DNA from: Candidatus Vogelbacteria bacterium
GTDB taxonomy: Bacteria > Patescibacteriota > Minisyncoccia > Phycocordibacterales > XYD1-FULL-46-19
Direction: 5' to 3'
Assembly: GCA_903864935.1 (NCBI GenBank)
Contig: CAIPHT010000007.1
Location: 16,293 to 80,292, forward strand
DNA: 64,000 nt
This document shows, in pieces, positions 20,198 to 40,339 of the stretch. A program made the translations under genes and the position numbers. The notes under the pieces are model-generated. The model worked only from the letters and a program-made list of their open reading frames with translations. It was not told the DNA's origin and searched no databases. Each line of letters begins with the position of its first letter. The first letter of the stretch is position 1.

Positions 20198-20432
20198 ATT
20201 TCTGTTAATAACCTGTGGAGAAGATTGTTAATAAAAAGATATTAAAAACAGGATAAGTTATAGAAAAATAAAAATATTATTTTAGAAGTAAAATTAATCT
20301 TAAGTAATCAACAGTTGAATAAAATTTATTATCTCAAATATGTTGCCAAATAAAGATATTCTGAGTTCTCCACATATCCCCAACTATAACAATAATAAGT
20401 TTCTTTTTAATTAAAAATAATTTATAAATACT
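20198..20432. other. probable oriC (AT-rich, DnaA boxes)
   Basis: Very AT-rich dnaA-dnaN spacer with TGTGGAGAA (about 20214) and TTCTCCACA (about 20366). By eye the + strand is C-rich to the left and G/T-rich further right. Confidence 0.75.
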
Positions 20433-21536
20433 ATGAAGCTAGAATGTCTAAAAGATAAATTTAAAGATGCTATTATCTTAGCCGAGAAGATAAGTGGGCG
20501 TAACTTAACCTTACCAATTCTAAGTACTATCCTGCTTGAGACTAAGAATAAGAATTTAATAATCAGAGCGACAAACTTAGAAGTGGGGATAGAAATAGAG
20601 ATTCCGGCCAAGATTGAAACTAGTGGTTTAGTGGCGGTTAATGCGAGTATTCTCTTGAATTATCTTAATAATCTTACTAAAGAAGAAAAAATAACCCTTG
20701 AGCTAGATAATAATAATCTTAAATTAAGTACTGAATCAACCCAAACGATTATTAAGAGTCTGGCGCCTGAAGATTTTCCTATTATTCCTAAAATTGCTCA
20801 GGAAGGTGGTTTTGAGATTAAGGCAGTTGATTTTGTCTCAGGCTTACAAGCTGTCTCTTTTGCAAGTGCAGTATCTGATATAAAACCAGAGATATCTAGC
20901 GTTTATCTTCATAATGAGAATCAAGATTTGATTTTTGTTGCCACCGACTCCTTTAGATTAGCCGAGAAAACAATAAATAATATCCCTAATTTAAGTAATC
21001 TTAATATTATTATTCCCTTTAAGAACGTGAACGAATTGATTAGAGTTCTAACTAGTTTGGGGACGAACCAAGTTGTTGTTAGTTATAATAAGAATCAATT
21101 AGCTATCCAGACAGACAATCTCTATCTTACTTTAAGGGTAATTGATGGTAATTATCCCGATTATAAACAAATCATCCCAACCAAATTTAATACTGAATTA
21201 AATATCAAAAAAGAAGATTTTGTTGGGTTACTTAAACTCTCAACAATTTTCTCTGATCGCTTTAATCAAATTGATATAACCTTTAAACCAGATTCTAATA
21301 CACTAGAAGTTTTATCTCATAACCAAGAAGTAGGGGAGAATAAATCGTCTTTAGTAATTAAAATTAAGGGCGAACCATTAATTATTAGCTTTAATGCTAA
21401 GTATTTACTAGATTGCCTTAGTTCCTTTAGTGATAATGTAATTAATCTACGTTTTACTGAGACAAGTCGACCTCTAATGATAGAGGGGACAACGGATAAC
21501 TCTTTCCATTATCTTGTGATGCCGATCAATAAGTAA
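20433..21536 (+). CDS. dnaN: DNA polymerase III beta clamp
   Basis: ATNLE, VATDSFRLA, GNYPDY, FNAKYL, YLVMP. Confidence 0.97.
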   Translation: MKLECLKDKFKDAIILAEKISGRNLTLPILSTILLETKNKNLIIRATNLEVGIEIEIPAKIETSGLVAVNASILLNYLNNLTKEEKITLELDNNNLKLSTESTQTIIKSLAPEDFPIIPKIAQEGGFEIKAVDFVSGLQAVSFASAVSDIKPEISSVYLHNENQDLIFVATDSFRLAEKTINNIPNLSNLNIIIPFKNVNELIRVLTSLGTNQVVVSYNKNQLAIQTDNLYLTLRVIDGNYPDYKQIIPTKFNTELNIKKEDFVGLLKLSTIFSDRFNQIDITFKPDSNTLEVLSHNQEVGENKSSLVIKIKGEPLIISFNAKYLLDCLSSFSDNVINLRFTETSRPLMIEGTTDNSFHYLVMPINK

Positions 21537-24226: not shown

Positions 24227-24274
24227 TTTTCTATCCTAGCACATTTTGCGTAAAAAGATAAGTGTGGTGTTATT

Positions 24275-24322
24275 AATAAAAAGACCAGGCTGACTTTATT
24301 TAGTCAGCCTGGTCTTTTTATT
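24275..24322. terminator. intrinsic terminator (21-bp stem)
   Basis: AATAAAAAGACCAGGCTGACT-ttattt-AGTCAGCCTGGTCTTTTTATT. Confidence 0.85.
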
Positions 24323-24333
24323 GTGAGACGATT

Positions 24334-25640: not shown

Positions 25641-25713
25641 ATAGTTTGTAGTATAGCGTATTTGATATAGAGGTAAAGAGCGAAAATTTTGCAAAACATG
25701 TTAAAATAAAAAC

Positions 25714-26322
25714 ATGAGATATGCTTTTATTGATGTTCAGAATACTATGGGGACAGTTAATCAACTCTTAAATTTCTCTATTGACTGGGGAAAACTTATC
25801 AGGCACCTAAAAAATGAGAAATGGGATTGCGCAAAAGTTTTTTATTACAAAGGCCGAAGAAAAGGCGAAGAAGAAGATAAAAGAATCCAAGACCTAGAGA
25901 ATTTGGGCTATATCGTTCGCAGTAAACTTACCCATATCCACCCAGATAAAACATTCACCCAAAAAGGTTTTTGCCAAAAATGTGGGGCAGAGACAGAGTC
26001 AAAATATATTATTAAGGGAGACCATAAATCAAATTGTGATGTTGAATTGACGGTAGATGCTTTAAAAATTGCGTATGCCAATAATTCGGAAAAAGAATTT
26101 TTGATTTTTACTGGTGATGGCGACTTCCGTTTCTTAATTGAAGCCCTTATTGAAAAGGGGATAAAAGTTATAATTATCTCTAATACTAAAAAGAATAGTA
26201 ACGGCGACAAGAGGTTCAGCACTAGATTAAGAGATTTAATCAAACAAGAAGAAAATAAGGGTAAATCAGGCCTAGTTGATTTTATTGATATTAATGACTG
26301 GAAACAGAGTATAAAAATATAA
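25714..26322 (+). CDS. NYN (LabA/PIN-like) ribonuclease with CxxC insertion
   Basis: AFIDVQN, KSNCDVEL, FTGDGDF; CQKC insertion. Confidence 0.85.
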   Translation: MRYAFIDVQNTMGTVNQLLNFSIDWGKLIRHLKNEKWDCAKVFYYKGRRKGEEEDKRIQDLENLGYIVRSKLTHIHPDKTFTQKGFCQKCGAETESKYIIKGDHKSNCDVELTVDALKIAYANNSEKEFLIFTGDGDFRFLIEALIEKGIKVIIISNTKKNSNGDKRFSTRLRDLIKQEENKGKSGLVDFIDINDWKQSIKI

Positions 26323-26362
26323 AAACAAACCGCCCTCAAGCGTGGCGGTTTGCGAATGATGT
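26321..26362 (-). ncRNA. putative short hairpin RNA convergent with the NYN gene (hairpin can also act as terminator)
   Basis: Minus-strand TTGACT(26394-89)-16 nt-TATTAT(26372-67) with TG, followed by stem CAAACCGCC/GGCGGTTTG and a U-run. Confidence 0.45.
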
Positions 26363-26404
26363 AATAATAATAGCAAGGTGCTGGCAAAAGTCAAGTAGTA
26401 GATA

Positions 26405-26466
26405 TAAAAAGAAAAGGGTACCTAAGGCACTAACACCTTTCGGGCCCCCTCTTCGTCTTAATATGC
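26405..26466 (-). ncRNA. putative NYN-associated three-way-junction small RNA, copy 1
   Basis: Minus-strand TTGAAT-18-TAGGAT promoter; GAAGAGGG..CC-GAAA-GG..CC-TTA-GG..CCCTTTTC; similar to 40236-40286. Confidence 0.55.
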
Positions 26467-26544
26467 TGAGTATCCTAACAAAAGCAGGTCACTAGATTCA
26501 AGTCTTCTAACCAAAATGAAAATCCTTGTAGTGGAAAATCTTAT

Positions 26545-27087
26545 CTAGGTCGTTTCCTCAATAATTTCTCCTGTTTCCGGCACTCTTTCTCCAACCTTAA
26601 CCTTCTTTATTGACACGCCTTCTTTGGGGTAATATTTTTTCCACTGGCCCAAGGCTTCTTCCTTAGAGAGCTCTATCCCGTCGGCGACACCGCTTATTGT
26701 CTCCGTGTCTATGGCCATAAGTTCGCTTCCTTCTTTTATGTTGGCTGTGATGATTATATTATGTTCCCCCTCTTCATCCGTTTCCATTATGCTCATAAAT
26801 ACCTTAGTCTTATCCTCATTTGTCTCTATATTAACACTGCGTTCTACTCTTGCTTCATAAATGGGTTGTCTTTTTTCTTCGCCGGTTTCTTCGTTGTAGC
26901 CTTGGCCATGAACACCGTATTTTTTCCTCAGTTTGTCCAGCTCCTCATTACTTTTTTCTGCACTTTGTTTGTCTCTTTCTTTAAGATAATCCGTCATTGC
27001 ATGACCTTCTTTTAGAATCTCCAAAGGGGATTTGGCCCCCGGGGTCGACTTTTGTTGTTCTGGGACACCAAAATTTTCCATTGACAT
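26545..27087 (-). CDS. acidic hypothetical protein
   Basis: 180-aa ORF, no recognised motif. Confidence 0.7.
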   Translation of the reverse strand: MSMENFGVPEQQKSTPGAKSPLEILKEGHAMTDYLKERDKQSAEKSNEELDKLRKKYGVHGQGYNEETGEEKRQPIYEARVERSVNIETNEDKTKVFMSIMETDEEGEHNIIITANIKEGSELMAIDTETISGVADGIELSKEEALGQWKKYYPKEGVSIKKVKVGERVPETGEIIEETT

Positions 27088-27197
27088 ATTATAAAATAGT
27101 TATTTTGATAAAAACTAGCGACATTGTCATTTTACCATAATCTCTGTTTTTGCTAAACTGTGGTCAGATATTATAAAGTCTAATTTAACACAAATTT

Positions 27198-27623
27198 ATG
27201 TCTAATTTTGAATTTATCCCAGATCCAAGTAAAAATGAGCCCAAGGGTGAGACTCATGTCGAATTCCCTAAATGGGATAAAAATACGGGCTTTGATCCGG
27301 ACTTAAGTAAAAATGAGTCTACCCCAAATAATAAAGAGGATAAGCCTTTAGAAACGGGGAATTTTCAAGTTAAGAAGAAGGAGGAAGAGGCTAGGGGTGC
27401 ATTGTTGGGGGTTTATGGTGATATCGCTGGCGATCTTAATAAAACCCTAGAGGAGCAAGCTAAAGACAATGATGATTTTATTAAAAGAGAGTTAAAAAGA
27501 CTGGGGAAAGATCCCGCTGAATTTGAAAGAAGAGCGGCTAAATTGGCTTGGCAAAACAAAACACTTGGTCAAAAAGCCTCTAGTATTTTCAAGGGTCTGG
27601 GGAAGAAGCTTTCTGGTAAATAA
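27198..27623 (+). CDS. hypothetical protein
   Basis: 141-aa charged ORF. Confidence 0.7.
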   Translation: MSNFEFIPDPSKNEPKGETHVEFPKWDKNTGFDPDLSKNESTPNNKEDKPLETGNFQVKKKEEEARGALLGVYGDIAGDLNKTLEEQAKDNDDFIKRELKRLGKDPAEFERRAAKLAWQNKTLGQKASSIFKGLGKKLSGK

Positions 27624-27628
27624 TTTAC

Positions 27629-28828
27629 ATGGAAGGTTTACCAGGGGAAAATATTAGCAATAACGAGGGTTTAGAAAGAGCTGAAAAGTTGGCCCGAAAG
27701 CTTATTGGCTTAATGACAGCTAAGATTGGGATTAATATTCCTGAAGAAAATTGGCCTGAAATAAAAATTTCCCCAGAAGGTTACAATACTTCTGCGTATG
27801 ACAAGAAAGACAATGTTATTTATCTAAACGAGTCACGCTTAGGTAGTGGCATCACTTACGGCGAAGAAATAGGGCATTTCATCAGATGCTATTTTGAGAG
27901 AGAAAATGGAGAGGCCGATATTTTTTGGGGTAATCCCAAGGTTGCGGTTGATGAATTTTATGGCCGTTTGGGTGAAAATATTGCCCGAGAAGTTTCCATG
28001 GGCACAGAGTTAGAAGTGCTCTTTGGCGAAGAGGACGAACGCAAACATTTTAAAGATGAAAAACTTGAAGAGGAAATAAAAAATGACATTAACAAGACAA
28101 AACCACTTTTAGATAAACTCGAAGAAGTGGCAAGAGCTAATCGTGAGGGTAAAATTAAAATAGCTGACAATATTAAATCATTTTTTGCTAAGCTTAAAGA
28201 TGCCGAATTGCTGTGCCAAGAAGCGAAACAACAAAAAATGTCTCCGGCTGAGTTGGGAAAAGAAGTTCTTAGTCTTGTCACCGAAGGCAGTGGAGGAAGA
28301 GAAGAATTAGCCGTTTTGGCCAAGTCCTTAATTAAAGATGGTGGTTATCCCGATTGGGCCCAGGGTCTGTTTGATGTTCTTACTGCGGCCGAAAAAAATC
28401 TCGCCGCCTTTAAAAGCAAGATTGAAGAAATGGGGTCATCTAAAGATGATAGTTTATACACTTTCCTCGAGAGTGATATTTGGTTTATAAAATCAAGCTG
28501 TAAAATGGCTATGATGAAATTATCAAACTTGGACCAGAGACTTGGTGGTATTGAGATGATAAATAACGCTCAGGTTAGCCTCCACCACACCATTGGGTAT
28601 GCTGCCGCTGAGAAATATATGCAGAAAGATCCTGATTGGCTTAGCAAGATACCCGTAATTTTTAAATATAAAAACAGGGAGGCGTTGGAAGAATTTATTG
28701 AAAATGATGATTTTCAGGATTGGCTACAGAGCAACGAATCAATGACCGTGTTAAAGGAAATGATTGAACAGTTAAAAAGAATTAGTGACTTGTCTATTTT
28801 CCCTTCAGAAGAATACGATTTAGACTAA
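27629..28828 (+). CDS. hypothetical protein with zincin-like EExGH segment
   Basis: 399-aa ORF; [13 protein letters not shown]...YGEEIGHFI. Confidence 0.7.
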
Positions 28829-29808
28829 GAGGAGGAAGGGTAATCAAAACCCATATGTTCGTAAGCGCGCTGAGTGGCAACGCGACCACGGGAGGTGCGT
28901 TCGATGAAGCCGAGTTGGATGAGGTAGGGCTCGTAGACATCCTCGATGGTGGCGTCTTCTTCGGAAATAGCGGTGGCAATGGTGCCGACACCAACGGGTC
29001 CACCATTAAATTTGGAGATAATAATATCTAAGATCTGGCGATCGGGATCAGTGAGTCCCATCTCATCTATTCCCTGTAAAGCCAAAGCCTCTTTTACTGT
29101 TTTAAGGTCAAGAGATTTTTTGGTAATTTGCGCATAATCTCGACAGCGTTTGAGGAGATGGTTGGCGATACGCGGGGTGAAACGAGAACGACGAGCGACT
29201 TCGATAGCGCCCGCCTCATCAATTTCTATACCCAAAATTCCTGCCGAGCGTTTAATTATTTCGGTAATTTCTTCTTCGGTATAAAATTCGAGACGATAAG
29301 TCCCGCCCGAGAAACGAGAGCGAAGAGGGGAGGAGAGTAGGGCGACACGAGTGGTGGCCGCAAGGAGAGTGAAGGGTGGTAAGTCAATCTGGATGACTCT
29401 CGCCCCTGGCCCTTTGCCAATAACAATATTAAGCATCCCAGACTCCATGGCGGGGTAGAGGACTTCCTCAATCATTTTATTGAGCCGATGGACTTCATCT
29501 ATAAAGAGAATATCTCCAGGCGAGAGGTTGGTAAGGATAGAGGCGAGGTCACCCACCTTCTCAATAGCGGGGCCGGAGGTAATCTTAATTTGAGCGCTCA
29601 TTTCCTTAGCAATCAGGTGAGCAAGAGTGGTCTTACCGAGACCGGGAGGGCCATAAAATAGGAGGTGCTCAGGCGGATGATTGCGCTCTTTAGCGGCTTG
29701 GAGGAGGATTTTTAGGTTATCTTTGATATTCTTTTGCCCTACATACTCCTCCCAGAGAGCGGGACGCAAGGAGCGATCTAAAAAGGTGTCATTTTCGATA
29801 CTTGACAT
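28825..29808 (-). CDS. ruvB: Holliday junction branch migration helicase RuvB
   Basis: [33 protein letters not shown]. Confidence 0.98.
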
Positions 29809-29830
29809 ATAATTCTTGATGTGCTAACAT
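29802..29830 (+). promoter_or_regulatory. sigma70 promoter of the intergenic RNA
   Basis: TTGACA-17 nt-(TG)TAACAT overlapping the ruvB start. Confidence 0.7.
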
Positions 29831-29837
29831 TAAGCTC

Positions 29838-30020
29838 AGGTAATCAAGTAGACAAATCTCTAAACAATCTAGATCAATTTATTGATCTAACGGATTTATT
29901 TGAGAGGACGTTTCGGTTCCCACCCTAGCAGTGGATCAGACGGAAACTATCCTGGATTATTTATTTAACTTTAGTTGCATAACGAAAGCGATTGTTTAGA
30001 GATTTGTACACTCGATTATC
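29838..30020 (+). ncRNA. 6S RNA-like rod-shaped RNA (about 183 nt)
   Basis: Perfect 18-bp closing stem 29852-69/29990-30007, AT-rich central bubble, apical stem 29905-29953, own promoter, no ORF. Confidence 0.5.
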
Positions 30021-30038
30021 AAAGAGCCGGGAACTGGG

Positions 30039-31736
30039 CTAAATTATCTCCTCGTACAGATCTATCACACGGCCCATTTCTTCTATCGTTGTTTCTCCTT
30101 TAATAACCTTCAGGACTCCATCTTGGCGCATGTCCAAGATTTTTTGCGGTATGGCGGCAATCTTAATTTCTTTTTCATTTGGATTGGTAATGGCGGCGGC
30201 TGCTACGGCGTCATCCATATAAATGGCTTCGAAGATGCCCTGACGGCCCTTGAAGCCAGTATTGTGGCACTCGTCACAACCAACACTTTTATAAACCTTA
30301 GTCCAAGTAGCGGGGACAAGCCCAGGGCGCTTTTTCTTAATGCTCTCTAAGACCTTATCAATTAACTCTTTCTCCCAAGGCTCAGGTTCTCGCTCTTGTT
30401 TGCAGACGGGGCAGAGCTTGCGCAAGAGACGCTGGGCAATAGATAGAGTAAGGGCGGAGGTAATAATCTTGGGATTAAGATTAAGATCAATCAAGCGGGG
30501 GATAGCGCCTTGGGCGTTATTGGTGTGCAAGGTTGAGAAGACTAAGTGCCCTGTTAACGATGATTGCACAGCAATCTTAGCGGTCTCGGGATCGCGAATT
30601 TCTCCCACCATGATAATATCCGGGTCTTGACGCAAGGCGCTTCGGAGACCAGAGAGGAAAGTGTAACCTTGCTTCCTATTGACCTGAGTCTGGTTGATGC
30701 CCTCGAGGTGATATTCAATTGGGTCTTCAATCGTGATGATTTTGCTCTCGGTGGAGTTAATCTCGCGCAAGAAGGAGTAGAGGGTCGTGGTTTTACCAGA
30801 GCCGGTTGGACCAGTAAGTAAGACAAGGCCGTTCGGCTTGTGAATTTCTTTATTAAAGACCTCAAACAATTCTTTCTCGATGCCCAATTTCTCGAAGGTG
30901 ACATTGATCGACTCCGGATTCAAGATACGCATAACGACCGATTCGCCATAGGCGGTGGGGATGACCGAAGAACGAATTTCAATCTCAGTATTCTTAAGTA
31001 TAATACTGAAGCGACCATCTTGAGAGGCGAGTTTAACATTCAACTTCATACCTGAGACAAGCTTGAGACGAGAGATAATCTGATTATAGATTTTGCTCGG
31101 GAAAACAGCCACATCTTCAAGTACGCCATCGAGGCGATAACGGAGACGAATATTGTCTTGCTCTGGTTCAATATGAATATCAGAGGCATCAGTCACGAGT
31201 CCGCCAGCCATAATAATTTCTAAGATAATAGAGATACCGCCCTGCTTCTCGGCGAGGTTGCTCTCTTTCTCGATCTCGACTCGGATATCCTTAAGAGTTT
31301 TGAAGCGGGTGGTATAATCCGCGATACTCTCACTGGAGATTTCGATTAGACCAGCATGAGACCTCTCAGATTTGGAGATTTCTTCATATTTGGCCCAGGC
31401 GCTCTCGAGGCCACTTAGAGAAGTGACATATAGAGTTATTTCAAAATTCTTGTTTTTTAATTCCTCAATGATACCCAAGGTCTCTGGTTTGTTGGGAGAG
31501 TCAACGGCGACATTTATTTTTTTGCCTGAGACAGAGAAAGCGACAATACTACCGGCGCGAGCGTCGGCTTCGGTCACCAGACGAAGAGCATCGGTATTAA
31601 CAAGAGTGCGAGTGAGATCAATGTAGGGGAGCTTGTATTTATCCGCCATCACTTGAGCCAGCTCTTCAGCCTCTCTGGTTCGCAAATCAGAAATTTGCTC
31701 ATCAGTAACTCCTTGTTTAAGTGGATCGTTGCTCAT
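30039..31736 (-). CDS. pilB: GspE/PilB type IV pilus assembly ATPase
   Basis: ASDIHIEP, GPTGSGKTT, TIEDPIE, LRQDPDIIMVGEIRD, CPVC/CDEC. Confidence 0.92.
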   Translation of the reverse strand: MSNDPLKQGVTDEQISDLRTREAEELAQVMADKYKLPYIDLTRTLVNTDALRLVTEADARAGSIVAFSVSGKKINVAVDSPNKPETLGIIEELKNKNFEITLYVTSLSGLESAWAKYEEISKSERSHAGLIEISSESIADYTTRFKTLKDIRVEIEKESNLAEKQGGISIILEIIMAGGLVTDASDIHIEPEQDNIRLRYRLDGVLEDVAVFPSKIYNQIISRLKLVSGMKLNVKLASQDGRFSIILKNTEIEIRSSVIPTAYGESVVMRILNPESINVTFEKLGIEKELFEVFNKEIHKPNGLVLLTGPTGSGKTTTLYSFLREINSTESKIITIEDPIEYHLEGINQTQVNRKQGYTFLSGLRSALRQDPDIIMVGEIRDPETAKIAVQSSLTGHLVFSTLHTNNAQGAIPRLIDLNLNPKIITSALTLSIAQRLLRKLCPVCKQEREPEPWEKELIDKVLESIKKKRPGLVPATWTKVYKSVGCDECHNTGFKGRQGIFEAIYMDDAVAAAAITNPNEKEIKIAAIPQKILDMRQDGVLKVIKGETTIEEMGRVIDLYEEII

Positions 31737-31812
31737 TTTTATAATTTTACCGCGTTACTACTTACATTACTAGCACCCATTAAACTTAACGCAAAGTGGA
31801 TAAGTACCATTC

Positions 31813-31963
31813 GGCTTAGTAGTTTTGAAAACCACACAAAAATCTCCGGCGAAGATTTTTGCTCGCGTTCCGCGTTGCCGTTTTGCCTTCGCACTGCTGT
31901 GCATAAGGAAGGCAAAATCCCTGCCGGCAACAGCTTCACGAGGCTTTTCAAAATTACTAAGCC
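31813..31963. repeat. nested palindromic element (MITE/REP-like or structured RNA)
   Basis: 19-bp terminal IR GGCTTAGTAGTTTTGAAAA/TTTTCAAAATTACTAAGCC with internal hairpins. Confidence 0.65.
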
Positions 31964-32017
31964 TCATTTGTTGTCCGGAGAGGCTTTTTAAACGAAACAA
32001 CCTTCGTTCATTTGTGC

Positions 32018-32046
32018 TTGACAGATATGTTAGACTATGCTATACT
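32018..32046 (+). promoter_or_regulatory. sigma70 promoter
   Basis: TTGACA-17-(TG)TATACT. Confidence 0.75.
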
Positions 32047-32119
32047 ATAGGTAGAAATGCAGTATTGAGTTGGGAATAACTGGCGAGCTTAAAGGCCGCC
32101 TTAATGAAAGGATTTCCCC

Positions 32120-32779
32120 ATGAAGAACCTTGTTATAGTCGTTGTTTTTGTTGTCATGTTGGCGTCGGTTGCTTTTGCCCAGTCTGGGCAGAGCGTGACC
32201 TTTCACCAGCCCAACGGCGGGACGTCCACCTGGACCCCGCCGGCGGCGCAGATGGTCAAGACCCCGTGCTACGGCACGGTGCCGAGAGCCAACGGACCGG
32301 TCGTCCGTCAGCTTCAGTCGCAGTGGCCTTCTCAGGTCTCCGCCCCGATGCCGCCGGTTGTGGGTGGGACAACATCGGCTGATCCGAGCGGTGTAGCCTC
32401 CCTTCGGGGTGGCATAGTTGCCGCGCGCCCTGTTCCTTCGGGTAACCCCGAGGTCGACAGAGACAACAACCAGACGGACCTCCAATGGGGTCAGTTGGCG
32501 GCTGAGCGTGAGCGCAGCAACCAGCAGGCTGATCTGGAGAGAGTCCAGATCGAAAGGCAATACGACATCCAACGCCGTGAAGAGTCTCGCCAGACGGTTC
32601 AGACTTTGGCCAATGTCATCCAGAATTGGCAGGATGGACAGGCTCGGCGCGAAGACTCGAAGGCCTCGCGGCGAATTGAGGCAAACTGGCAGGCTCAGAA
32701 CGCCGCTCAGCAAGCGGCAGACCGCGCGAGCCAGTTGGCCCAAACGGCCATGTCAGCGGCCGCCGCGGCCAGGCACTAA
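32120..32779 (+). CDS. GC-rich secreted hypothetical protein with Q/R-rich coiled coil
   Basis: AAAGGA SD, signal peptide ending AFA, own promoter and terminator. Confidence 0.75.
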   Translation: MKNLVIVVVFVVMLASVAFAQSGQSVTFHQPNGGTSTWTPPAAQMVKTPCYGTVPRANGPVVRQLQSQWPSQVSAPMPPVVGGTTSADPSGVASLRGGIVAARPVPSGNPEVDRDNNQTDLQWGQLAAERERSNQQADLERVQIERQYDIQRREESRQTVQTLANVIQNWQDGQARREDSKASRRIEANWQAQNAAQQAADRASQLAQTAMSAAAAARH

Positions 32780-32796
32780 GTTTAGTAAAGGGTCCG

Positions 32797-32838
32797 AGCC
32801 CCTGGGAGAGAGTCACTCTCCCAGGGGCTTTTTCTTTT
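32797..32838 (+). terminator. intrinsic terminator
   Basis: AGCCCCTGGGAGAG-agtca-CTCTCCCAGGGGCT followed by a T-run. Confidence 0.85.
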
Positions 32839-32878
32839 GTCCTCATTTTGTTACGCTTATCGTTGTAGAATAAATAAT

Positions 32879-33367
32879 ATGAAAGAGACAAAAATTATTT
32901 CTAAATCACTCGAAGATACTTATAATGTTGCCAAGCTTTTTCTTTCTAACCTAAAACCTAAAAGTTTACCCCGTGGCGGAGCTTTACGGGGCTCCCAAGC
33001 TGCTGTTGTTTTACTCGAAGGGGACTTAGGAGGAGGTAAGACCACGTTTACTCAAGCCTTGGCCCGCGAACTTGGGGTGAAGAATTATCTTACGAGTCCG
33101 ACCTTTGTTTTAATGAAAAGCTACAAGATTTCTCCCGAAGTCACTGAGAGGCTTCGCCTCTCAGTTAAGAATCTTATTCATATTGATGCTTATCGCTTAA
33201 ATTCTGGCGCTGATTTGTTGAATCTTGGCTGGGCTGAGCTCGTCGCTAATCCCGCCCACTTAATTGTGTTAGAATGGCCAGAGAAGGTGGCCGACCTCTT
33301 CGACGGTTTGGAGCACAAAATCAAGTTCAAATTTATTGATGAACAAAAAAGAGAAATAATTTTATAA
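32879..33367 (+). CDS. tsaE: tRNA threonylcarbamoyladenosine biosynthesis ATPase TsaE
   Basis: LEGDLGGGKTTF, TSPTF, HIDAYRL, VLEWPE. Confidence 0.95.
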   Translation: MKETKIISKSLEDTYNVAKLFLSNLKPKSLPRGGALRGSQAAVVLLEGDLGGGKTTFTQALARELGVKNYLTSPTFVLMKSYKISPEVTERLRLSVKNLIHIDAYRLNSGADLLNLGWAELVANPAHLIVLEWPEKVADLFDGLEHKIKFKFIDEQKREIIL

Positions 33368-33789
33368 TGATGGAAGACAATATTTTTGATTTTTCTAAAT
33401 TTAAGAGAGAGAAGGAAGAAAAGAAGTCTGAGGTAATAAAAGCTGAAGGTAAGAAATCAGAACCAGATAATCTGGCCGGCTTTATGGGTATGATGGCAGA
33501 TATGATTGGGCAAGTGTCTGATGCCGGTGGTGCAGATAAATCGGTTAGTGATGCCCTCTCAGCTTTTCAATTAGAATTTTCGCCCAATGGTGTGATTATT
33601 AATAAGGTTAGGTACTCTGTGAATCCTCAATCAACAGCTTATCGGGAAGCCTATGAGAGAGCTGACCAGTTGTCGCTTGAAGAAATTCGCGGACAAATAG
33701 AATCCGCGAACGAGATGCCAATTAAGGCTCATCCGACTTGGTATGTTGTCCTTATTGATAACCTGATGAATCGCTCAAAGCCGAAATAA
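33367..33789 (+). CDS. hypothetical protein
   Basis: 140-aa ORF coupled to tsaE. Confidence 0.65.
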   Translation: MMEDNIFDFSKFKREKEEKKSEVIKAEGKKSEPDNLAGFMGMMADMIGQVSDAGGADKSVSDALSAFQLEFSPNGVIINKVRYSVNPQSTAYREAYERADQLSLEEIRGQIESANEMPIKAHPTWYVVLIDNLMNRSKPK

Positions 33790-33857
33790 CTTTATAAAAT
33801 AAGGCCTAATAGAGGTCTCACTTCCATAAGCCGTAGCCACGTTAAATAATCAAGACC

Positions 33858-33888
33858 TTGACGAGTAGGGCTATTTAGGGGTATATCT
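33858..33888 (+). promoter_or_regulatory. promoter shared with the 39012 gene
   Basis: TTGACGAGTAGGGCTATTTAGGGGTATA; 24/28 identical to 38851-38878. Confidence 0.6.
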
Positions 33889-33972
33889 GAAGCAGATAAT
33901 CATTGTCATTTTACTCGGTGTCTCTGGGTGAAATGTTGAAATATCGGCGAACAGAAATAAGGAAAACTGACC

Positions 33973-34614
33973 ATGGATTACATGCTCAGCAAAGCGCTCC
34001 GCGAATTCAATTCCGGACCGCTTCATCAACTTCTAGTGAATCTTGGTGGGGAAGAGGGCGCAATGTGGGAAGCAGAGCTCAAAAAGTTCAATCGCAAGGA
34101 AACCTGCTGGCCCAAGACGAACCCCTACCTGCGCAAGCTCGCGGACGGCACGCTTCCGGCGACCGACGGCCAGCGAACGATGGTCAGGGCGAAGGACATG
34201 TTTCCCGGCTACTTCGGGAAAGATTACGCTAACTGGGGAACGGATGTCCCTGGCAAAGCGACGCCGGAAATGCCATTCCAAGTGTATGAGCTGGTCATGG
34301 ACGGTAAATTCGCGCAGATCTTCGGCGGATTCGCCCGTCCACTCGGCGAGTTGTGCTGGGAACAAGACAAGATCCTCGCGTTTGTGGAGGGTCACCCCGA
34401 ACGGCTCCACCCGCAGGGCTACGGGACCTTCTTCTTGTTCAAGGTTAAGTTCAAGGAGAACACCGAGAACAAGCGAGAGGAGTTCTTCGTTGCCAACGTC
34501 TACCGGGACGGTGGCCAGCTCAAGGCGCACGTGTTCCGGTTCTCGTTCGACAGCGTCTGGCCTGCCGGGTATCGCTATCGCTTCGTGGTCCCGCAACTGG
34601 CCTCAGCCGTTTAG
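33973..34614 (+). CDS. putative DGR target (variable) protein, family 1
   Basis: GC-rich ORF; C-terminus FFVANVYRDGGQLKAHVFRFSFDSVWPAGYRYRFVVPQL enriched in NNC/NNT codons; hairpin at 34646-34679. Confidence 0.6.
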   Translation: MDYMLSKALREFNSGPLHQLLVNLGGEEGAMWEAELKKFNRKETCWPKTNPYLRKLADGTLPATDGQRTMVRAKDMFPGYFGKDYANWGTDVPGKATPEMPFQVYELVMDGKFAQIFGGFARPLGELCWEQDKILAFVEGHPERLHPQGYGTFFLFKVKFKENTENKREEFFVANVYRDGGQLKAHVFRFSFDSVWPAGYRYRFVVPQLASAV

Positions 34615-34708
34615 TCTCTGTTTCCCCTTTGTCGCTTTGATCCTCAATCCCTTGGACCCTTTCGGGGGCCCAGGGGATTTTTGCTATAAATGAGTTATAC
34701 TTAAGGCA

Positions 34709-37210
34709 ATGGCCAAAAAGAATTATAAAACCAAAATCGTCCTCATTGACGCCCATGCTATCTTGCATCGGGCTTATCATGCTTTGCCGGATTTCTCTTC
34801 GAGTAAGGGTGAGCCGACGGGCGGGCTCTACGGCTTGGCCTCGATGATGCTTCGGATTATTGCTGACCTTAAGCCAGATTATATTTTTGCTTGTTATGAC
34901 CGCGCTGAGCCAACCTTCCGTAAGCAAGTTTATGATGAATATAAGGCGGGGCGCGCTAAGGCTGAGCCAGAGTTGGTGGCGCAGATTATTCGTTCGCGCG
35001 ATATCTTCACCGCGCTTCATATACCAATCTACGATCTGGCCGGTTTTGAGGCGGATGATATTATTGGGACGATAGTTGAGAAATTGTCAAAAGGAGTTCG
35101 AGGAGAGACCTCGGGCTCACTCGAGGACTCACCTCGAACGCGACAGGCCTCCTCGGCTCAGATAATAATTGCCTCGGGTGATATGGACACCCTCCAGCTG
35201 GTTGATGACGATAGGGTTGTTGTCTTCACACTTAAGAAAGGTCTCAATGATACTGTCGTCTATGATGAGAAGATGGTGCGCGAGCGTTATGGCTTCGAAC
35301 CCAAATTCCTGATTGATTATAAAGGTTTAAGAGGTGACCCGTCTGATAATATTATTGGTGTGGAGGGTATCGGAGAGAAAACGGCGACAACTTTGATTCA
35401 AGAGTTTGGCACAATTGAAGATATTTATAAACAGATTAAAAAGGATGAGCAGGTTTTGCTTGATCGAGGTGTTAAAGCTCGAATTCTGGAGATTTTAAAG
35501 AATAGCGAAGAAGAGGCGATTTTTTCTAAAACCTTGGCAACGATCAGGCGTGATGCTGGTATTGATTTTAAATTACCTAAGGAGACTTGGGCCGAGACTT
35601 TTGAGACGACCAAGGCCGAGGGCTTATTCAATGATTTGGAGTTTAGGACTTTGATTGGGAGGTTGAAGAAACTTGAGATCGGGCCTCGCCCCACGGGCGA
35701 AGTTGGACTTCAGGGCTCATCGAAGTCCAACTTCTCACGACCGGGCTCGGCCGAGGGAGGTGAGCCGGCTGTGGGAAGTCCGACTTCAAGTGAGCCCGAA
35801 GTCGTACTTCACTCACCGGCTGAGGAACTTGAAATTAAACAACTTGCCATCGCCCTCTGGCTTATCAATTCAGACACTACCAACCCCAAGCTTGAAGATA
35901 TTTTCGAATACACCCGAACCGAAGACTTGGCCAAGGCCAAAGAAAAATTGTTGGCTGACTTAGAGAAGCTTGGCCTAACTAAAATTTACCAAGAAGTGGA
36001 ACTGCCTCTCATCCCAATACTTGAAGAGGCTCAGGCACGGGGGATTAAGGTGGATAAGAAATTATTGGCAGATTTGTCTGTTGATTATCATGCCAAGCTC
36101 AAAGATTTGGAGAAAAAGATTTATGAGCTGGCTGGCTCTGAATTCAACATTAATTCGCCCAAGCAACTAGGAGAGATTCTTTTTACCAAGCTTAATTTGT
36201 CGGTGAAGGGTCTTAAGAAGACAGCGGGAGGCAGTCAATCTACTCGCGAATCGGAGATTGCCAAGCTGAAGGATGTCCACCCAATTATCAACGAGATTCT
36301 GGCCTATCGCGAATTGCAGAAGTTGCTCTCAACTTATATTGATAATCTCCCTAAGCTCTTAGACGAGGACGATATTTTGCACCCGACCCTCAACCAGACG
36401 GGTACCACGACCGGGCGTATGTCCTCAACTAACCCTAACGTGCAGAATATCCCGACGCGGGGTGAGCAAGGGGCAGCGATTAGGACAGCCTTCGTCGCGC
36501 GCGAGGGGTATGAATTAATGGCTTTTGACTATTCTCAGATTGAGCTGCGAGTTTTGGCTGCCCTCTCACAAGATCCAGAATTAATTAAGATTTTTAACGA
36601 AGGTAAGGACATCCACACTTCGGTTGCGTCACGCGTTTTTGGAGTTATTGAGGGAGATGTGACTAAAGAGATGAGGCGACGGGCAAAGGTGATTAATTTT
36701 GGCATTATCTATGGGATGGGGGTTAATGCGCTTAAGGCCAATCTTGGGACAACTCGTGATGAAGCCCAAGAATTCATGGATAATTATTTTGCCTCTTTCC
36801 CCACTATCAAGAAATACTTCGAATTGGTGATTGAGGGAGCCAGAGACAGGGGATACACCGAGACTCTCTTTGGTCGTCGTCGTTATTTGCCGGCTCTTCA
36901 CTCTCAATTGCCTCAAATTAAGGCCAGCGCTGAGCGTATGGCGATGAATGCCCCACTTCAGGGGACGGCAGCCGATATTATTAAGCTGGCCATGATTCGG
37001 GCTGATAAAGATATCAAGGAGGCTGGTTTGTCAGACAAAGCCTTCTTGTTGCTCCAGATCCACGATGAACTTATTTTTGAAGTAAAAGAGGGACTTAGTG
37101 CTAAAGTTATGCCTTTAATTAAGAAATCCATGGAGGAGGTGATTAAGATGAATGTTCCCCTAGAGGTCTCATCGGCTCGTGGTCCTCGCTGGGGGGAACT
37201 TGAGAAATAA
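34709..37210 (+). CDS. polA: DNA polymerase I (5'-3' exonuclease + polymerase; 3'-5' exonuclease region degenerate)
   Basis: IDAHAILHRAYHA, FEADD, GDPSDNI, TTTGRMSS, DYSQIELR, LLQIHDEL. Confidence 0.97.
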   Translation: MAKKNYKTKIVLIDAHAILHRAYHALPDFSSSKGEPTGGLYGLASMMLRIIADLKPDYIFACYDRAEPTFRKQVYDEYKAGRAKAEPELVAQIIRSRDIFTALHIPIYDLAGFEADDIIGTIVEKLSKGVRGETSGSLEDSPRTRQASSAQIIIASGDMDTLQLVDDDRVVVFTLKKGLNDTVVYDEKMVRERYGFEPKFLIDYKGLRGDPSDNIIGVEGIGEKTATTLIQEFGTIEDIYKQIKKDEQVLLDRGVKARILEILKNSEEEAIFSKTLATIRRDAGIDFKLPKETWAETFETTKAEGLFNDLEFRTLIGRLKKLEIGPRPTGEVGLQGSSKSNFSRPGSAEGGEPAVGSPTSSEPEVVLHSPAEELEIKQLAIALWLINSDTTNPKLEDIFEYTRTEDLAKAKEKLLADLEKLGLTKIYQEVELPLIPILEEAQARGIKVDKKLLADLSVDYHAKLKDLEKKIYELAGSEFNINSPKQLGEILFTKLNLSVKGLKKTAGGSQSTRESEIAKLKDVHPIINEILAYRELQKLLSTYIDNLPKLLDEDDILHPTLNQTGTTTGRMSSTNPNVQNIPTRGEQGAAIRTAFVAREGYELMAFDYSQIELRVLAALSQDPELIKIFNEGKDIHTSVASRVFGVIEGDVTKEMRRRAKVINFGIIYGMGVNALKANLGTTRDEAQEFMDNYFASFPTIKKYFELVIEGARDRGYTETLFGRRRYLPALHSQLPQIKASAERMAMNAPLQGTAADIIKLAMIRADKDIKEAGLSDKAFLLLQIHDELIFEVKEGLSAKVMPLIKKSMEEVIKMNVPLEVSSARGPRWGELEK

Positions 37211-37348
37211 GGCTTAAAAACTAGACCACTTTATCCCCAAAGGGGGAATCTTGATTTTTTTGCTCCAAAGCCCTATTATTAGGGAGCAATAAGATTTGCA
37301 AACCAAAAAATAAAGGTCGGTTATTAACCTTTTATTGAATTTTTTCAA

Positions 37349-37555
37349 ATGAAGAATTATATCATTGTTGCTGTTATCATCATCCTCATCATTGTTGGTG
37401 TTGTTTGGTTCAAGGCTAAGAGCCCAGCCCCTGTTGGTGAGACCACTGTCACTACCGAACCAGCTACTACTACTGACACCACTGTTGTCCCTGCCGCTGA
37501 AGTTCCAGCTGCTGAGACCCCAGCTGCCAGTACTACTGCCCCAGCTGCTCAATAA
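37349..37555 (+). CDS. small membrane-anchored P/A/T-rich protein
   Basis: TM helix plus low-complexity tail; followed by a terminator. Confidence 0.75.
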   Translation: MKNYIIVAVIIILIIVGVVWFKAKSPAPVGETTVTTEPATTTDTTVVPAAEVPAAETPAASTTAPAAQ

Positions 37556-37572
37556 TCTTAAAAAGATTTAGA

Positions 37573-37602
37573 AAAACAACCCCGCTTAGCGGGGTTGTTT
37601 TC
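37573..37602 (+). terminator. intrinsic terminator
   Basis: AAAACAACCCCGC-tta-GCGGGGTTGTTTT. Confidence 0.85.
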
Positions 37603-37632
37603 GTTTACTTAAAAGTTTATAATTTTAGTTAT

Positions 37633-38154
37633 ATGGATTTAACTCTTATTGGTTACTCAAGCTTGTTTATTAGTTTATTAGCAGCCGTTTTTTTGGGTGC
37701 GGTCTTGGGGATTGAGAGAAATTTGGCCGGCAAGATGGCTGGTATGCGCACCTACTCCCTAGTTAGTCTTGGCTCAGCTCTCTTTGTTATCATCTCACGT
37801 TCGGTGATTGCCGAGTCGGGCCCATTAACGGCCGGGATTGACCCGCTTCGTATGGCTTCGCAAATTATTGTGGGCATCGGCTTCATTGGAGCCGGACTTG
37901 TTGTTTTGCGAGGTTCAAGATTAACCGGTATTACAACCGCGGCTGGAGTTTGGGTTTCGGCGGGGGTTGGTATGGCCTGTGGCTTCGGTCTCTATGCCCT
38001 AGCTCTGTTTACCACGGGGCTTACGCTCTTCATCTTTACCATTCTTTGGATTATTGAGCGTGATTATGTTCGCCGAATGTTAATTAAGGGAGAAATTCCT
38101 ACGCCGACTCAAGAAGAAGGTGACGAAGAAGATAATGGCGATAACGAAGAATAA
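37633..38154 (+). CDS. MgtC/SapB family membrane protein
   Basis: LGIER, AGMRTY.LV, DPLRMASQII.GIGFIGAG, GITTAA. Confidence 0.93.
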   Translation: MDLTLIGYSSLFISLLAAVFLGAVLGIERNLAGKMAGMRTYSLVSLGSALFVIISRSVIAESGPLTAGIDPLRMASQIIVGIGFIGAGLVVLRGSRLTGITTAAGVWVSAGVGMACGFGLYALALFTTGLTLFIFTILWIIERDYVRRMLIKGEIPTPTQEEGDEEDNGDNEE

Positions 38155-38764
38155 CCTTAGCGAGCGAGATGTAGCTCTTAAGAAAATCAGAGACGAAGTC
38201 TTAACCCTAGAAGACTCGCCTCTGTTTTTGTATCGGACAGAGAATAATTATTTGCCGGTGATCGGCGAAGGGAGTCACATTGCGAAGATTATGTTGGTGG
38301 GGGAGGCCCCAGGGAGGAATGAGGCGAAGTCGGGCAAACCTTTTTGTGGTTCGGCGGGAAAGATCTTAGACTCTCTCTTGGCCGAAGCCGGATTAAAAAG
38401 AGAAGAAATTTATATTACGAATATTGTCAAAGACCGACCACAAAAGAATAGAGATCCCTTGCCAGAGGAGATAGAAATGTATGGCCCATTTTTAGACCGG
38501 CAAATTGATATCATTCAGCCGAGAGTTTTAGTTGGCCTCGGGCGTTATTCATCCAAGTATCTCCTAGGGAAATTTGGTTTGGCCGAAGCAACACTCCCAA
38601 TTAGTGAACTCCACGGGAGGGCTTTTGAGGCAGTCGCTCCTTATGGTAAAGTGACCATAGTCCCTCTCTACCACCCCGCCGCCGCGATTTATAACCAACG
38701 CCTGATTGAGACTCTCAAAAAAGATTTTAAGATTTTGCCCTCCCTCCTCCCGCCAGACCTCTAG
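38135..38764 (+). CDS. udg: uracil-DNA glycosylase family 4
   Basis: VGEAPG, PFCG.AG, YITNIVK.RP, LYHPAA. Confidence 0.93.
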   Translation: MAITKNNLSERDVALKKIRDEVLTLEDSPLFLYRTENNYLPVIGEGSHIAKIMLVGEAPGRNEAKSGKPFCGSAGKILDSLLAEAGLKREEIYITNIVKDRPQKNRDPLPEEIEMYGPFLDRQIDIIQPRVLVGLGRYSSKYLLGKFGLAEATLPISELHGRAFEAVAPYGKVTIVPLYHPAAAIYNQRLIETLKKDFKILPSLLPPDL

Positions 38765-38815
38765 TGCTGTGCCCCTCGAAGCTTTAGCGAAGTGGGGAGC
38801 CCGAGGTCTGGCGGG
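38749..38815. repeat. palindromic element overlapping the udg stop
   Basis: 13-bp stem CCCGCCAGACCTC/GAGGTCTGGCGGG enclosing CCCCTCGAAGCTTTAGCGAAGTGGGG. Confidence 0.7.
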
Positions 38816-38850
38816 TCTTAAATTGTCTTAAAACAAGGCTTTTCTTACTA

Positions 38851-38880
38851 TTGACAAGTAGGGCAATTTGGGTGTATAAT
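38851..38880 (+). promoter_or_regulatory. sigma70 promoter
   Basis: TTGACA-18-TATAAT. Confidence 0.75.
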
Positions 38881-39011
38881 GTAAGTAGAAGTTTGAAATA
38901 GAAATAGCGTTTTTTGTGAGGCAAACCGTGTTTGTCTTGCTGTCTTGTTTGGCCTCTTGCCTATCAGGTGAGAGGAACCCCCGACTATCAGTCGGGAGAA
39001 AGGCTACGGCC

Positions 39012-39605
39012 ATGTCAAAGTATGGACACAGAACAGGAGACTGGTGTGAGGCGATTGTGAACAAGCTTGGAGGAGAAGAAGCGGCTGACGCTTTCCTTCG
39101 GGACGAGTTGGTCATCTCCAAACGGCCCGCCGATGCCATCCTCGAGTTCGTCGGCACGGCCAACATCGCCGCCACGACAACGAAGTTCGTCGCCAAGGAA
39201 AAGTTCAAGCTGAAGAAGGATGGGGGCATCTGCTCCTATATCGGCGACAACTTCAAGGACTGGTTCGGCGGCAAAGAGGAGGATCCGCTTGCCGAAACCA
39301 CGCTCCGCTATGCCAAACTCCGCAAGTCGTCCGTCGACACCCCGATTGTCGCCGAGCTTGGCGGTGAAGCAAAGGCCGAGACCACGTTGACGGAAGTCTT
39401 TGGTCTTATGTCCAAACAGGCCAAGGCCGAGACTGGCGTTCTCCTCACCAATGGCTGGGCGAACATCTTCTATGTTCGCGATCAGAATGGTGTGTTGCGC
39501 GCGGTCTTCGTCCACTGGGACGACGGCGGCTGGAGCGTGCACGCGGGCGAGCTCGGCTACCCGGATACGTGGCTCGATGGCTACCAGGTGTTCTCTCGCA
39601 ATTAG
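39012..39605 (+). CDS. putative DGR target (variable) protein, family 2
   Basis: GC-rich ORF; C-terminus VLRAVFVHWDDGGWSVHAGELGYPDTWLDGYQVFSRN with NNC codons at the apparently variable sites; two hairpins downstream. Confidence 0.7.
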   Translation: MSKYGHRTGDWCEAIVNKLGGEEAADAFLRDELVISKRPADAILEFVGTANIAATTTKFVAKEKFKLKKDGGICSYIGDNFKDWFGGKEEDPLAETTLRYAKLRKSSVDTPIVAELGGEAKAETTLTEVFGLMSKQAKAETGVLLTNGWANIFYVRDQNGVLRAVFVHWDDGGWSVHAGELGYPDTWLDGYQVFSRN

Positions 39606-39674
39606 CGCTTAGGGTCTTGGAAACTTCGGGTTTCTGACCCTTAGATCCTTTTGACCCTTTGGCCCTGTTCCCTT

Positions 39675-39712
39675 AACCCCCGGACGCATTTCGTCCGGGG
39701 GTTTCGCTTTTT
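39675..39712 (+). terminator. hairpin/terminator after the DGR-target-like gene
   Basis: AACCCCCGGACG-cattt-CGTCCGGGGGTT. Confidence 0.75.
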
Positions 39713-39727
39713 GGGAATTGTTATAGA

Positions 39728-40255
39728 ATGAGGGGGATGAATCTAGCCTTTATTGACGGGCAAAATTTGTATTTCAACACGGCCAAAAAAGAAATTGAGC
39801 CGTGGGTGGTGGATTTGGCCCGTTTTCGAATTTATTTGGAGAAAAAATATCAAGTCAAAGAGGCTTATTATTTTTTGGGTTATGAACAAGAAGAGAATAA
39901 AGATTTGTATGAAGAAATTAGAAAAGCTGGATTTGTTTTAAAATTTCGCAGTCATAATTTAGCAATGGAGGGTAAGAAAAAGGGTAATGTCGATTCGGAC
40001 ATTATCTTTCACATTATGAAAAAGTTATACAAAAAGGAGGATTTCGATAAGATTGTCTTAGTTTCTGGTGACGGGGACTATAAATTACTGGTTGATTTTC
40101 TGATTGAGGAGGGGAAATTTGAGAGAATTTTGTTCCCGGACAAGAGATTTAGATCGTCTTTGTATCAAGAATTGGGTTCAGAATATTTTGATTATCTAGA
40201 AAGCAAGAGTATTAAAGAAAAAATTCAGTATAAACGAAAAGGGCTCCTTAGGTAG
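39728..40255 (+). CDS. NYN (LabA/PIN-like) ribonuclease
   Basis: AFIDGQNL, KKGNVDSDI, VSGDGDY; start may be 39737. Confidence 0.9.
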   Translation: MRGMNLAFIDGQNLYFNTAKKEIEPWVVDLARFRIYLEKKYQVKEAYYFLGYEQEENKDLYEEIRKAGFVLKFRSHNLAMEGKKKGNVDSDIIFHIMKKLYKKEDFDKIVLVSGDGDYKLLVDFLIEEGKFERILFPDKRFRSSLYQELGSEYFDYLESKSIKEKIQYKRKGLLR

Positions 40256-40288
40256 TTAGCCGTTCGGATCCCTTTTCTTCTGAATACT
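40231..40288 (-). ncRNA. putative NYN-associated three-way-junction small RNA, copy 2
   Basis: Minus-strand TTGACT(40320-15)-17-(TG)TATTAT(40297-92); GAAAAGGG..CC-GAAC-GG..CC-TAA-GG..CCCTTTTC overlapping the NYN 3' end. Confidence 0.6.
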
Positions 40289-40339
40289 TAAATAATAGCA
40301 AAATAGACAGAAAAAGTCAACCAAGTATAATGCAATAAT

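Follow-up and report, generated by a model that had tools for sequence, protein, structure and literature searches.

Tandem repeats followed by a terminator, both upstream of the toxin gene, are the layout that defines type III toxin-antitoxin (TA) loci (PMC12283969, accessible part of the text). For AbiF/AbiFr, and for AbiF/RCd22 of C. difficile, the accessible texts describe a cis-encoded RNA that binds the RNase directly and works in trans, its unpaired nucleotides inhibiting the active site (PMC12737573; bioRxiv 10.1101/2025.04.15.648962). The LabA-like NYN cluster is listed, in the accessible part of the 2017 classification, as being of unknown function (PMC5499597). Our literature search found no account of an NYN-linked RNA, most subscription papers and the supplement of PMC5737381 lying beyond its reach. 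Here we report on a stretch of 64,000 nucleotides (nt) from Candidatus Vogelbacteria bacterium (assembly GCA_903864935.1, contig CAIPHT010000007.1, positions 16,293 to 80,292 of the forward strand; hereafter the window), which carries two genes for predicted NYN RNases, NYN1 and NYN2, with short promoter-driven hairpin RNA units at their 3′ ends. Our favoured explanation, which we hold to be reasonably probable, is that an accessory NYN gene and its promoter-hairpin unit make up a type III-like TA cassette, in which the RNA would silence the cognate NYN RNase.

NYN Genes and RNA Units of the Window

NYN1 (25714-26322, plus strand, 202 amino acids) and NYN2 (39728-40255, plus strand) are NYN/LabA-type predicted RNases, as a preliminary description of this DNA had recognized. 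Pfam NYN (PF01936) was the sole Pfam family matched by either protein, with E-values of 1.9e-15 and 1.8e-16 and scores of 58 and 61 bits against a curated cut-off of 24.2. The two genes had been called divergent, which holds for their sequences (about 20% protein identity) but not for their orientation, as both lie on the plus strand. NYN1 has a CxxC...CxxC-type insert and an intact acidic active site, and its residues D7, D109, D115, D135, D137, C87, and C90 were invariant in the 46 sequences compared; in NYN2, D10, D89, D115, and D117 were invariant in 24 sequences. The AlphaFold model of NYN2 (pLDDT 87) has 2qip (VPA0982) and the NYN domain of MARF1 as its nearest folds. The host genome, of 825 kb, contains six NYN genes.

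NYN1 is directly followed by its cognate RNA unit A (26318-26361, minus strand), which is about 44 nt long and consists of a short leader ending in CATTC, a 29-nt hairpin and a T-rich tail. This unit scores 52 bits with model R2, its hairpin has a folding z of -4.3, and its sigma70-type promoter, TTGACT-16-TATTAT (26367-26394, minus strand), was found by the promoter scan and is conserved in homologous loci. The cognate unit of NYN2, unit B (copy 2; 40230-40286, minus strand; 73 bits with model R1), has an unpaired leader of about 9 nt, an interrupted rod hairpin and a T tail, and it overlaps the last 20 nt of NYN2, as noted before. The promoter already proposed for it, TTGACT-17-TATTAT (40292-40320, minus strand), was recovered by the scan.

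A second rod hairpin of the NYN2 type (copy 1; 26404-26465, minus strand; fold and HMM/model matches), of a subtype unlike copy 2, is stacked behind unit A, about 85 nt farther along. Both elements were found where the preliminary description had placed them, and they are far more alike than chance would allow, their global alignment scoring 19, whereas 2000 shuffles averaged -16.6 and never exceeded 2. A hidden Markov model (HMM) built from 23 other loci, with the window rows left out, matched only copies 1 and 2 at E<1e-9 in the whole genome (1e-14 and 4e-10, the next match being at 0.009). The inner stem and loop of copy 1 match those of loci L013, L023, L114, and L115. Its promoter, TTGAAT-18-TAGGAT with a TG before the -10 (26472-26501, minus strand), is indeed present in the sequence, but agrees with the consensus at 8/12 positions and falls below the scan threshold. 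The idea that the same element follows each NYN gene had to be given up, as the unit directly behind NYN1 is a different one. Copy 1 is best read as an orphan of the NYN2 type and not as the partner of NYN1, because 79/81 NYN1-type loci carry unit A and the NYN2-type unit was not found in 74 other NYN1-type loci: model R1 detected no unit B (best match 21 bits) in 81 other loci, 74 of them NYN1-type. The two NYN1-type loci that did not count as carrying unit A were one with no downstream sequence and one that the promoter pattern missed but in which the unit was seen by eye. Of the 81 loci, 80 are the best among 317 metagenome matches and one is from a genome; several are duplicates, and three frameshifted loci were anchored by hand.

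Linkage to Accessory NYN Clades

One fixed detector, a convergent promoter plus a self-terminating hairpin at the NYN stop codon, was applied to all clades. It was positive at 22/25 NYN2-type, 74/80 NYN1-type, 8/8 C5-type, and 23/30 C6-type loci, against 1/30 loci of the core NYN clade, which bears out the enrichment at NYN genes that the earlier proposal required. Most of the loci missed by the detector show the motif by eye; this is the case for the seven C6-type misses, all of which also score with model R3. For the relatives of NYN2, which come mostly from Patescibacteria records, a convergent promoter and the motif were seen by eye at the stop codon in all 25 loci fetched, L024 being a divergent variant. 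In the host genome, 5 of 772 open reading frames (ORFs) passed a filter for a promoter and hairpin of this kind and 3 of these were NYN genes; the unit of the host C6 NYN gene was found by model R3 with 77 bits.

Searches that started from the motif gave a similar picture. With R1, run on 150 genomes of the class, 16 of 18 non-own matches followed an NYN gene of the NYN2/C6 group; of the other two, one followed a RhuM/Fic gene and one was a promoterless terminator (two own matches and one reverse-strand duplicate had been removed). With R3, run on 150 genomes of the phylum, 11 of 15 non-own matches were beside NYN genes, 3 were orphans and 1 was false. A weak R3 match in the window (24266-24323) was rejected, being an ordinary perfect bidirectional terminator-like hairpin between a PBP gene and ruvC. 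As to prevalence, accessory NYN clades are patchy and the core clade is near-universal: core NYN was present in 56/61 genomes, NYN1-type in 2/401, C5-type in 8/201, and the broad C6/NYN2 group in 68/201.

These counts bear on the idea that the unit is a reused DNA module, a bidirectional terminator plus promoter that travels with accessory cassettes and whose RNA product is of no consequence. The hairpin can indeed terminate on both strands, the promoter of the NYN2 unit stands back to back with, and overlaps, an xth promoter-like site (40304-40331, plus strand), and orphan units follow unrelated genes (RhuM/Fic, amidase, ABC transporter). However, the promoter points into the hairpin, so that only an RNA of 40-60 nt would result, and the four motifs track four NYN clades, with only 2 of about 766 non-NYN ORFs passing the filter. 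Ordinary terminators, moreover, score 27-32 bits with R2 against 52-57 for true units and have no promoter, and the conserved leader, internal mismatch and loop described below are also at odds with a module of this kind, which we consider very unlikely.

Fold and Sequence Constraint

The CC/GG dinucleotides on which the preliminary description had based a three-way junction allow two pairings, one that gives two mini-hairpins and one that gives a nested rod. We examined 25 copies, of which 2 could not be parsed, and the rod was the more stable fold in all 23 others. Pairs of the junction had a probability of at most 0.0001 and its inner mini-helices showed no compensatory change in the alignment, so the junction was abandoned. 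By contrast, 6 pairs of the NYN2-type rod were changed on both sides. Compensatory changes were present in 8/17 rod pairs of the C6-type RNAs (16 ungapped sequences chosen from about 35), and the stem of unit A is 99% paired with 76 compensatory cells; in both cases 0/500 shuffles were as high, so that the covariation expected of a structured RNA was indeed found, and the nested rod accounts for it. As stability, pair probabilities and covariation all favour the rod, the predicted architecture of unit B is a 5′ unpaired leader followed by an interrupted rod hairpin and a T tail. The length of the rod varies, with a longer inner stem in L012 and L015 and no inner stem in L022 and L124.

The leader, the internal mismatch and the loop of the units are conserved. 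Pairwise identity is 0.59-0.92 over the 7 unpaired nt that precede the stem, against 0.32-0.39 for the adjacent and equally linked promoter spacer (6 rows without an anchor were left out). RNA type also tracks protein clade in a FastTree tree of 106 of the 163 distinct proteins. Rfam 15 recovered only tRNAs in the window and no family at the units; a search of 21 loci with E up to 0.5-1 gave no match near threshold at the units, abiF-type families included. Taken with the enrichment at NYN genes and the covariation, the conserved unpaired leader and loop uphold the earlier view of an NYN gene with a promoter-driven structured RNA, and not with a plain terminator.

Upstream RNAs in the HEC-09 Clade

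The host C4 NYN protein matches HEC-09 (PADLOC PDLC04163) at E 8e-40, and tblastn matched it to 432 plasmid records. PADLOC gave only weak matches for NYN1 and NYN2, NYN2 matching HEC-09 at E 4e-5 and NYN1 having no HEC-09 match. In 13 loci of the HEC-09 clade, hairpins and a terminator were located upstream of the gene in 10, downstream and convergent in 1 (L287), and nothing clear was seen in 2. On plasmids of 4-5 kb from E. coli and Klebsiella, tandem RNA-like repeats and a terminator lie directly upstream of a lone NYN gene (L288:536-680, L289, L293); in L288, a 4.6-kb E. coli plasmid, these are 33-nt tandem repeats with a 96% match. The hairpin of this clade recurs in Phaeobacter, Acetobacter, and E. 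coli loci. A promoter, a hairpin and a terminator were observed upstream of the HEC-09-type NYN gene at G000:C4, L145:974-1060. The RNA of L287, a Paenarthrobacter plasmid locus, is similar to this one.

A cognate RNA could also be a cofactor, substrate or trigger of a non-toxic nuclease, the ribonucleoprotein acting on other RNA or sensing a phage or plasmid. Clade-specific RNAs would fit any protein-RNA pair, RNAs associated with DUF3800 proteins show a similar association and their function is given as not known in the accessible part of PMC5737381, and a HEC-09 gene could be cloned and expressed in E. coli (bioRxiv 10.1101/2024.01.29.577857, accessible part). That clone, however, had its native promoter region, and may thus have carried its RNA. 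In addition, conservation of the leader within a clade argues against a programmable guide, and the occurrence of orphan RNAs where there is no nuclease is more readily explained if they are antitoxins. We therefore regard a cofactor role as unlikely.

Orphan Units, Stacked Units and Insertion Sites

Five orphan units with intact promoters lie between unrelated genes (L117, L270, L272, L278, L282), the preceding genes including a RhuM/Fic gene, an amidase gene and an ABC transporter gene. One of them, L282 (G000:C5:64120-64177), is a C6-type unit of the host genome itself, with a near-consensus promoter and no NYN gene nearby. Besides the window, stacked units were seen in L125, L275, and L027, and L277 has two tandem units behind one promoter. 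Behind unit A, L027 (about 2140-2240, minus strand) and also L072 have a multi-hairpin RNA of another kind, promoter-driven and about 85 nt long, with no Rfam match. In L008:468-2048 and in L159, two NYN cassettes that differ in subtype stand in tandem, and each has an RNA unit to itself; those of L008 are separated by a short ORF that by eye resembles a RhuM fragment. In L112:107-240, a repeat of about 60-65 nt occurs twice between an NYN2-type gene and its RNA unit, and a group I intron match (52 bits) lies upstream of an NYN2-type gene in L001:843-1121. In viral contigs, neither of the two patterns tried, one for motif B and one for motif A, had an exact match, and the C4 NYN had no relative there.

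At the yebC site, none of the 10 relatives examined (24 were fetched) has an NYN gene, and at the xth site none of 11 (24 loci were fetched), udg being directly before xth in 10 of these 11. Because NYN is absent from the same sites in relatives, both cassettes of the window are, on this comparison, insertions. The hairpin might then be the end of a mobile element mobilised by NYN, in line with the empty sites and with the stacking of units in the window, L125, L275, and L027. This we consider extremely improbable: no transposase or integrase was found among the 19 window proteins scanned, most loci have a single unit per gene, the promoter stands at a fixed spacing that a DNA end does not need, and NYN has an RNase fold.

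Next to NYN2, an ORF of 229 amino acids (38916-39605, plus strand; no Pfam or PADLOC match) is absent along with NYN2 from the udg-xth junction of relatives; its C-terminus presumably resembles the C-type-lectin-like variable proteins that are targets of diversity-generating retroelements. An ORF of 180 amino acids (26545-27087, minus strand; no Pfam or PADLOC match) lies within an insertion of about 1.4 kb beside yebC relative to genome G584. In L222 and L252, the two insertion sites are taken up by other accessory genes; we take one, by eye, to be a PemK-like gene beside yebC and the other to be an unrelated gene before xth.

Other Features of the Window

An extended -10-like site (25699-25707, plus strand; from sequence) lies 6 nt 5′ of the NYN1 start codon and predicts a leaderless mRNA. 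A -10-like box 4-8 nt before the ATG is present in 50/79 NYN1-type loci, against 6/27 core loci, and a Shine-Dalgarno sequence is almost never present at many accessory NYN genes with such a box, which suggests that many accessory NYN mRNAs are leaderless. Translation of NYN2 likely begins at its second ATG (39737), with a TAGAAT box (39724-39729) 7 nt before it. Upstream, an intrinsic-terminator-like hairpin revealed by the terminator scan (39675-39703, plus strand) would insulate the NYN2 cassette on that side. The window probably spans the replication origin, as dnaA and dnaN (18821-21536) coincide with a GC-skew minimum near 18-20 kb.

Proposed Mechanism and Its Weak Points

We propose the following mechanism for the type III-like cassette. 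Its starting points are three observations: the catalytic residues of NYN are intact, relatives lack the cassette at these sites, and the RNA is clade-specific, with a covarying stem and a conserved unpaired leader. A strong promoter would produce a self-terminating RNA of 40-60 nt, in excess over a weakly promoted and probably leaderless NYN mRNA. The NYN protein would read the stem and loop, and the single-stranded 5′ leader would mimic a substrate in the open active site. If the cassette were lost, or transcription shut off, the nuclease would be freed, with addiction or dormancy as the outcome. Copy 1 and other orphan RNAs could be leftovers of replaced cassettes that perhaps retain the ability to neutralise related nucleases in trans. 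Where a unit is convergent, its hairpin probably doubles as the NYN terminator.

Several points weigh against this explanation. Linkage, structure and sequence constraint are observed, whereas toxicity, transcription of the RNA, protein-RNA binding and the physiological role are predictions from the sequences. The tracking of protein clade by RNA type would be expected from linkage alone, and we find the conservation of the leader relative to the spacer more telling. The promoters of RNA units score about 10 of 12 and those of NYN genes about 8 of 12, a comparison biased by the fact that a promoter score of 9 or more was a selection criterion. No repeat array or pseudoknot was seen in the RNAs of the window, leader-loop pairing being uncounted, and tblastn with NYN2 found no match in the plasmid and phage collections. 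The 13 HEC-09-clade loci were picked by hand and read by eye, and their RNAs differ in sequence from those of the four other clades. According to the accessible part of its report, HEC-09 failed to protect E. coli from the phages that were tried (bioRxiv 10.1101/2024.01.29.577857). Because this one tested relative did not protect E. coli, the anti-phage role offered as an option in the preliminary description is unsupported; its other option, a type III-like TA system, fits the type III layout of the related clade, and the antitoxin function is our inference. Finally, the Patescibacteria clades are almost always convergent (78/79 NYN1-type units and all NYN-adjacent motif-first matches), which an antisense mechanism would predict as well.

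Convergent type I loci such as txpA/RatA and fst are known, and a cis-antisense, type I-like RNA would here pair with the 3′ end of the NYN mRNA, or disturb its transcription, and lower its level. In favour of such a mechanism are the convergent layout, shared by nearly all loci of the four Patescibacteria clades, and the overlap of the hairpin with the final NYN codons, which reaches about 30 nt. Our premise, however, is that a protein-binding RNA could sit anywhere and an antisense RNA could not. In the NYN1-type locus L058, the unit is in sense orientation behind an intact gene, and the sister HEC-09 clade has its RNA upstream; the position of the unit does not seem to be fixed. An antisense RNA is complementary to its target from the outset, and its leader and loop would have no need to be conserved; here both are, and the RNA is almost wholly a stable hairpin. 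The five orphans, too, keep intact promoters. We judge antisense action to be unlikely, though with a real chance of being correct.

For the RNA antitoxin that we favour, we can also venture a wider proposal, to which we give a little less than even credence: that there is a widespread undescribed superfamily of RNA antitoxins acting on PIN/NYN nucleases, with at least five clades, each having its own RNA of 40-60 nt, which is convergent in Patescibacteria and takes the type III repeat layout on Pseudomonadota plasmids, the orphans being an immunity archive against incoming nucleases.

PIN-fold toxins such as VapC are held in check by protein antitoxins. If our proposal is true, an RNA antitoxin for the PIN fold would extend the logic of type III systems to another nuclease superfamily. 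It would give accessory LabA/NYN genes a concrete and testable function, and it suggests how an antitoxin of about 100 bp lets the ultra-small Patescibacteria maintain accessory nucleases, and why a lone NYN gene is carried on E. coli plasmids of 4-5 kb. The cassette on these plasmids makes the question directly testable in a laboratory strain. The HEPN counterpart, AbiF, is reported to be the ancestor of Cas13 (PMC12737573, accessible part).

Comparison With Known Systems

The core Patescibacteria NYN proteins, like other LabA-like proteins of NYN.COG1432, belong to the same Pfam family and fold (2qip) as the accessory ones (PMC5499597, accessible part). They differ from the accessory clades in being near-universal and in having the RNA unit in just one of the 30 loci. 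HEC-09 is a single-gene NYN candidate defence system, presented in a main text whose accessible part makes no mention of non-coding RNA (bioRxiv 10.1101/2024.01.29.577857). The DUF3800-I to XI, drum, and skipping-rope RNAs are unrelated structures, each tied to one protein family, often ended by a terminator and placed on either side of the gene in either orientation; this protein family is different from NYN, and neither "NYN" nor "DUF88" occurs in the accessible main text (PMC5737381).

As for type I TA systems, the hairpin overlaps the predicted 3′ end of the mRNA where the locus is convergent, an overlap that L058 and the upstream HEC-09 loci lack. Type I toxins are typically small hydrophobic peptides, and the NYN proteins are soluble proteins of 175-202 amino acids.

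The resemblance to the type III systems toxIN, cptIN and tenpIN lies in the pairing of a predicted endoribonuclease with a small structured RNA (PMC12283969, accessible part). The complete order of promoter, tandem repeats, terminator and toxin gene was found only in the HEC-09-clade plasmid loci L288, L289, and L293. The window differs in that its nucleases have the PIN/NYN fold and are not homologues of ToxN, CptN or TenpN, and in that its RNAs are single rod hairpins, downstream and convergent, with their own promoters. In a broad sense of type III, a conserved structured RNA specifically linked to a nuclease gene is what the NYN units present. AbiF is likened to them by the RNA proposed to hold the RNase; it is a HEPN nuclease, however, and the NYN units have no abiF match in Rfam. 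Because the toxin fold and the layout of the window depart from those of the known families, we propose that the NYN units work like type III TA systems and AbiF, but fall outside toxIN, cptIN, tenpIN, and AbiF.

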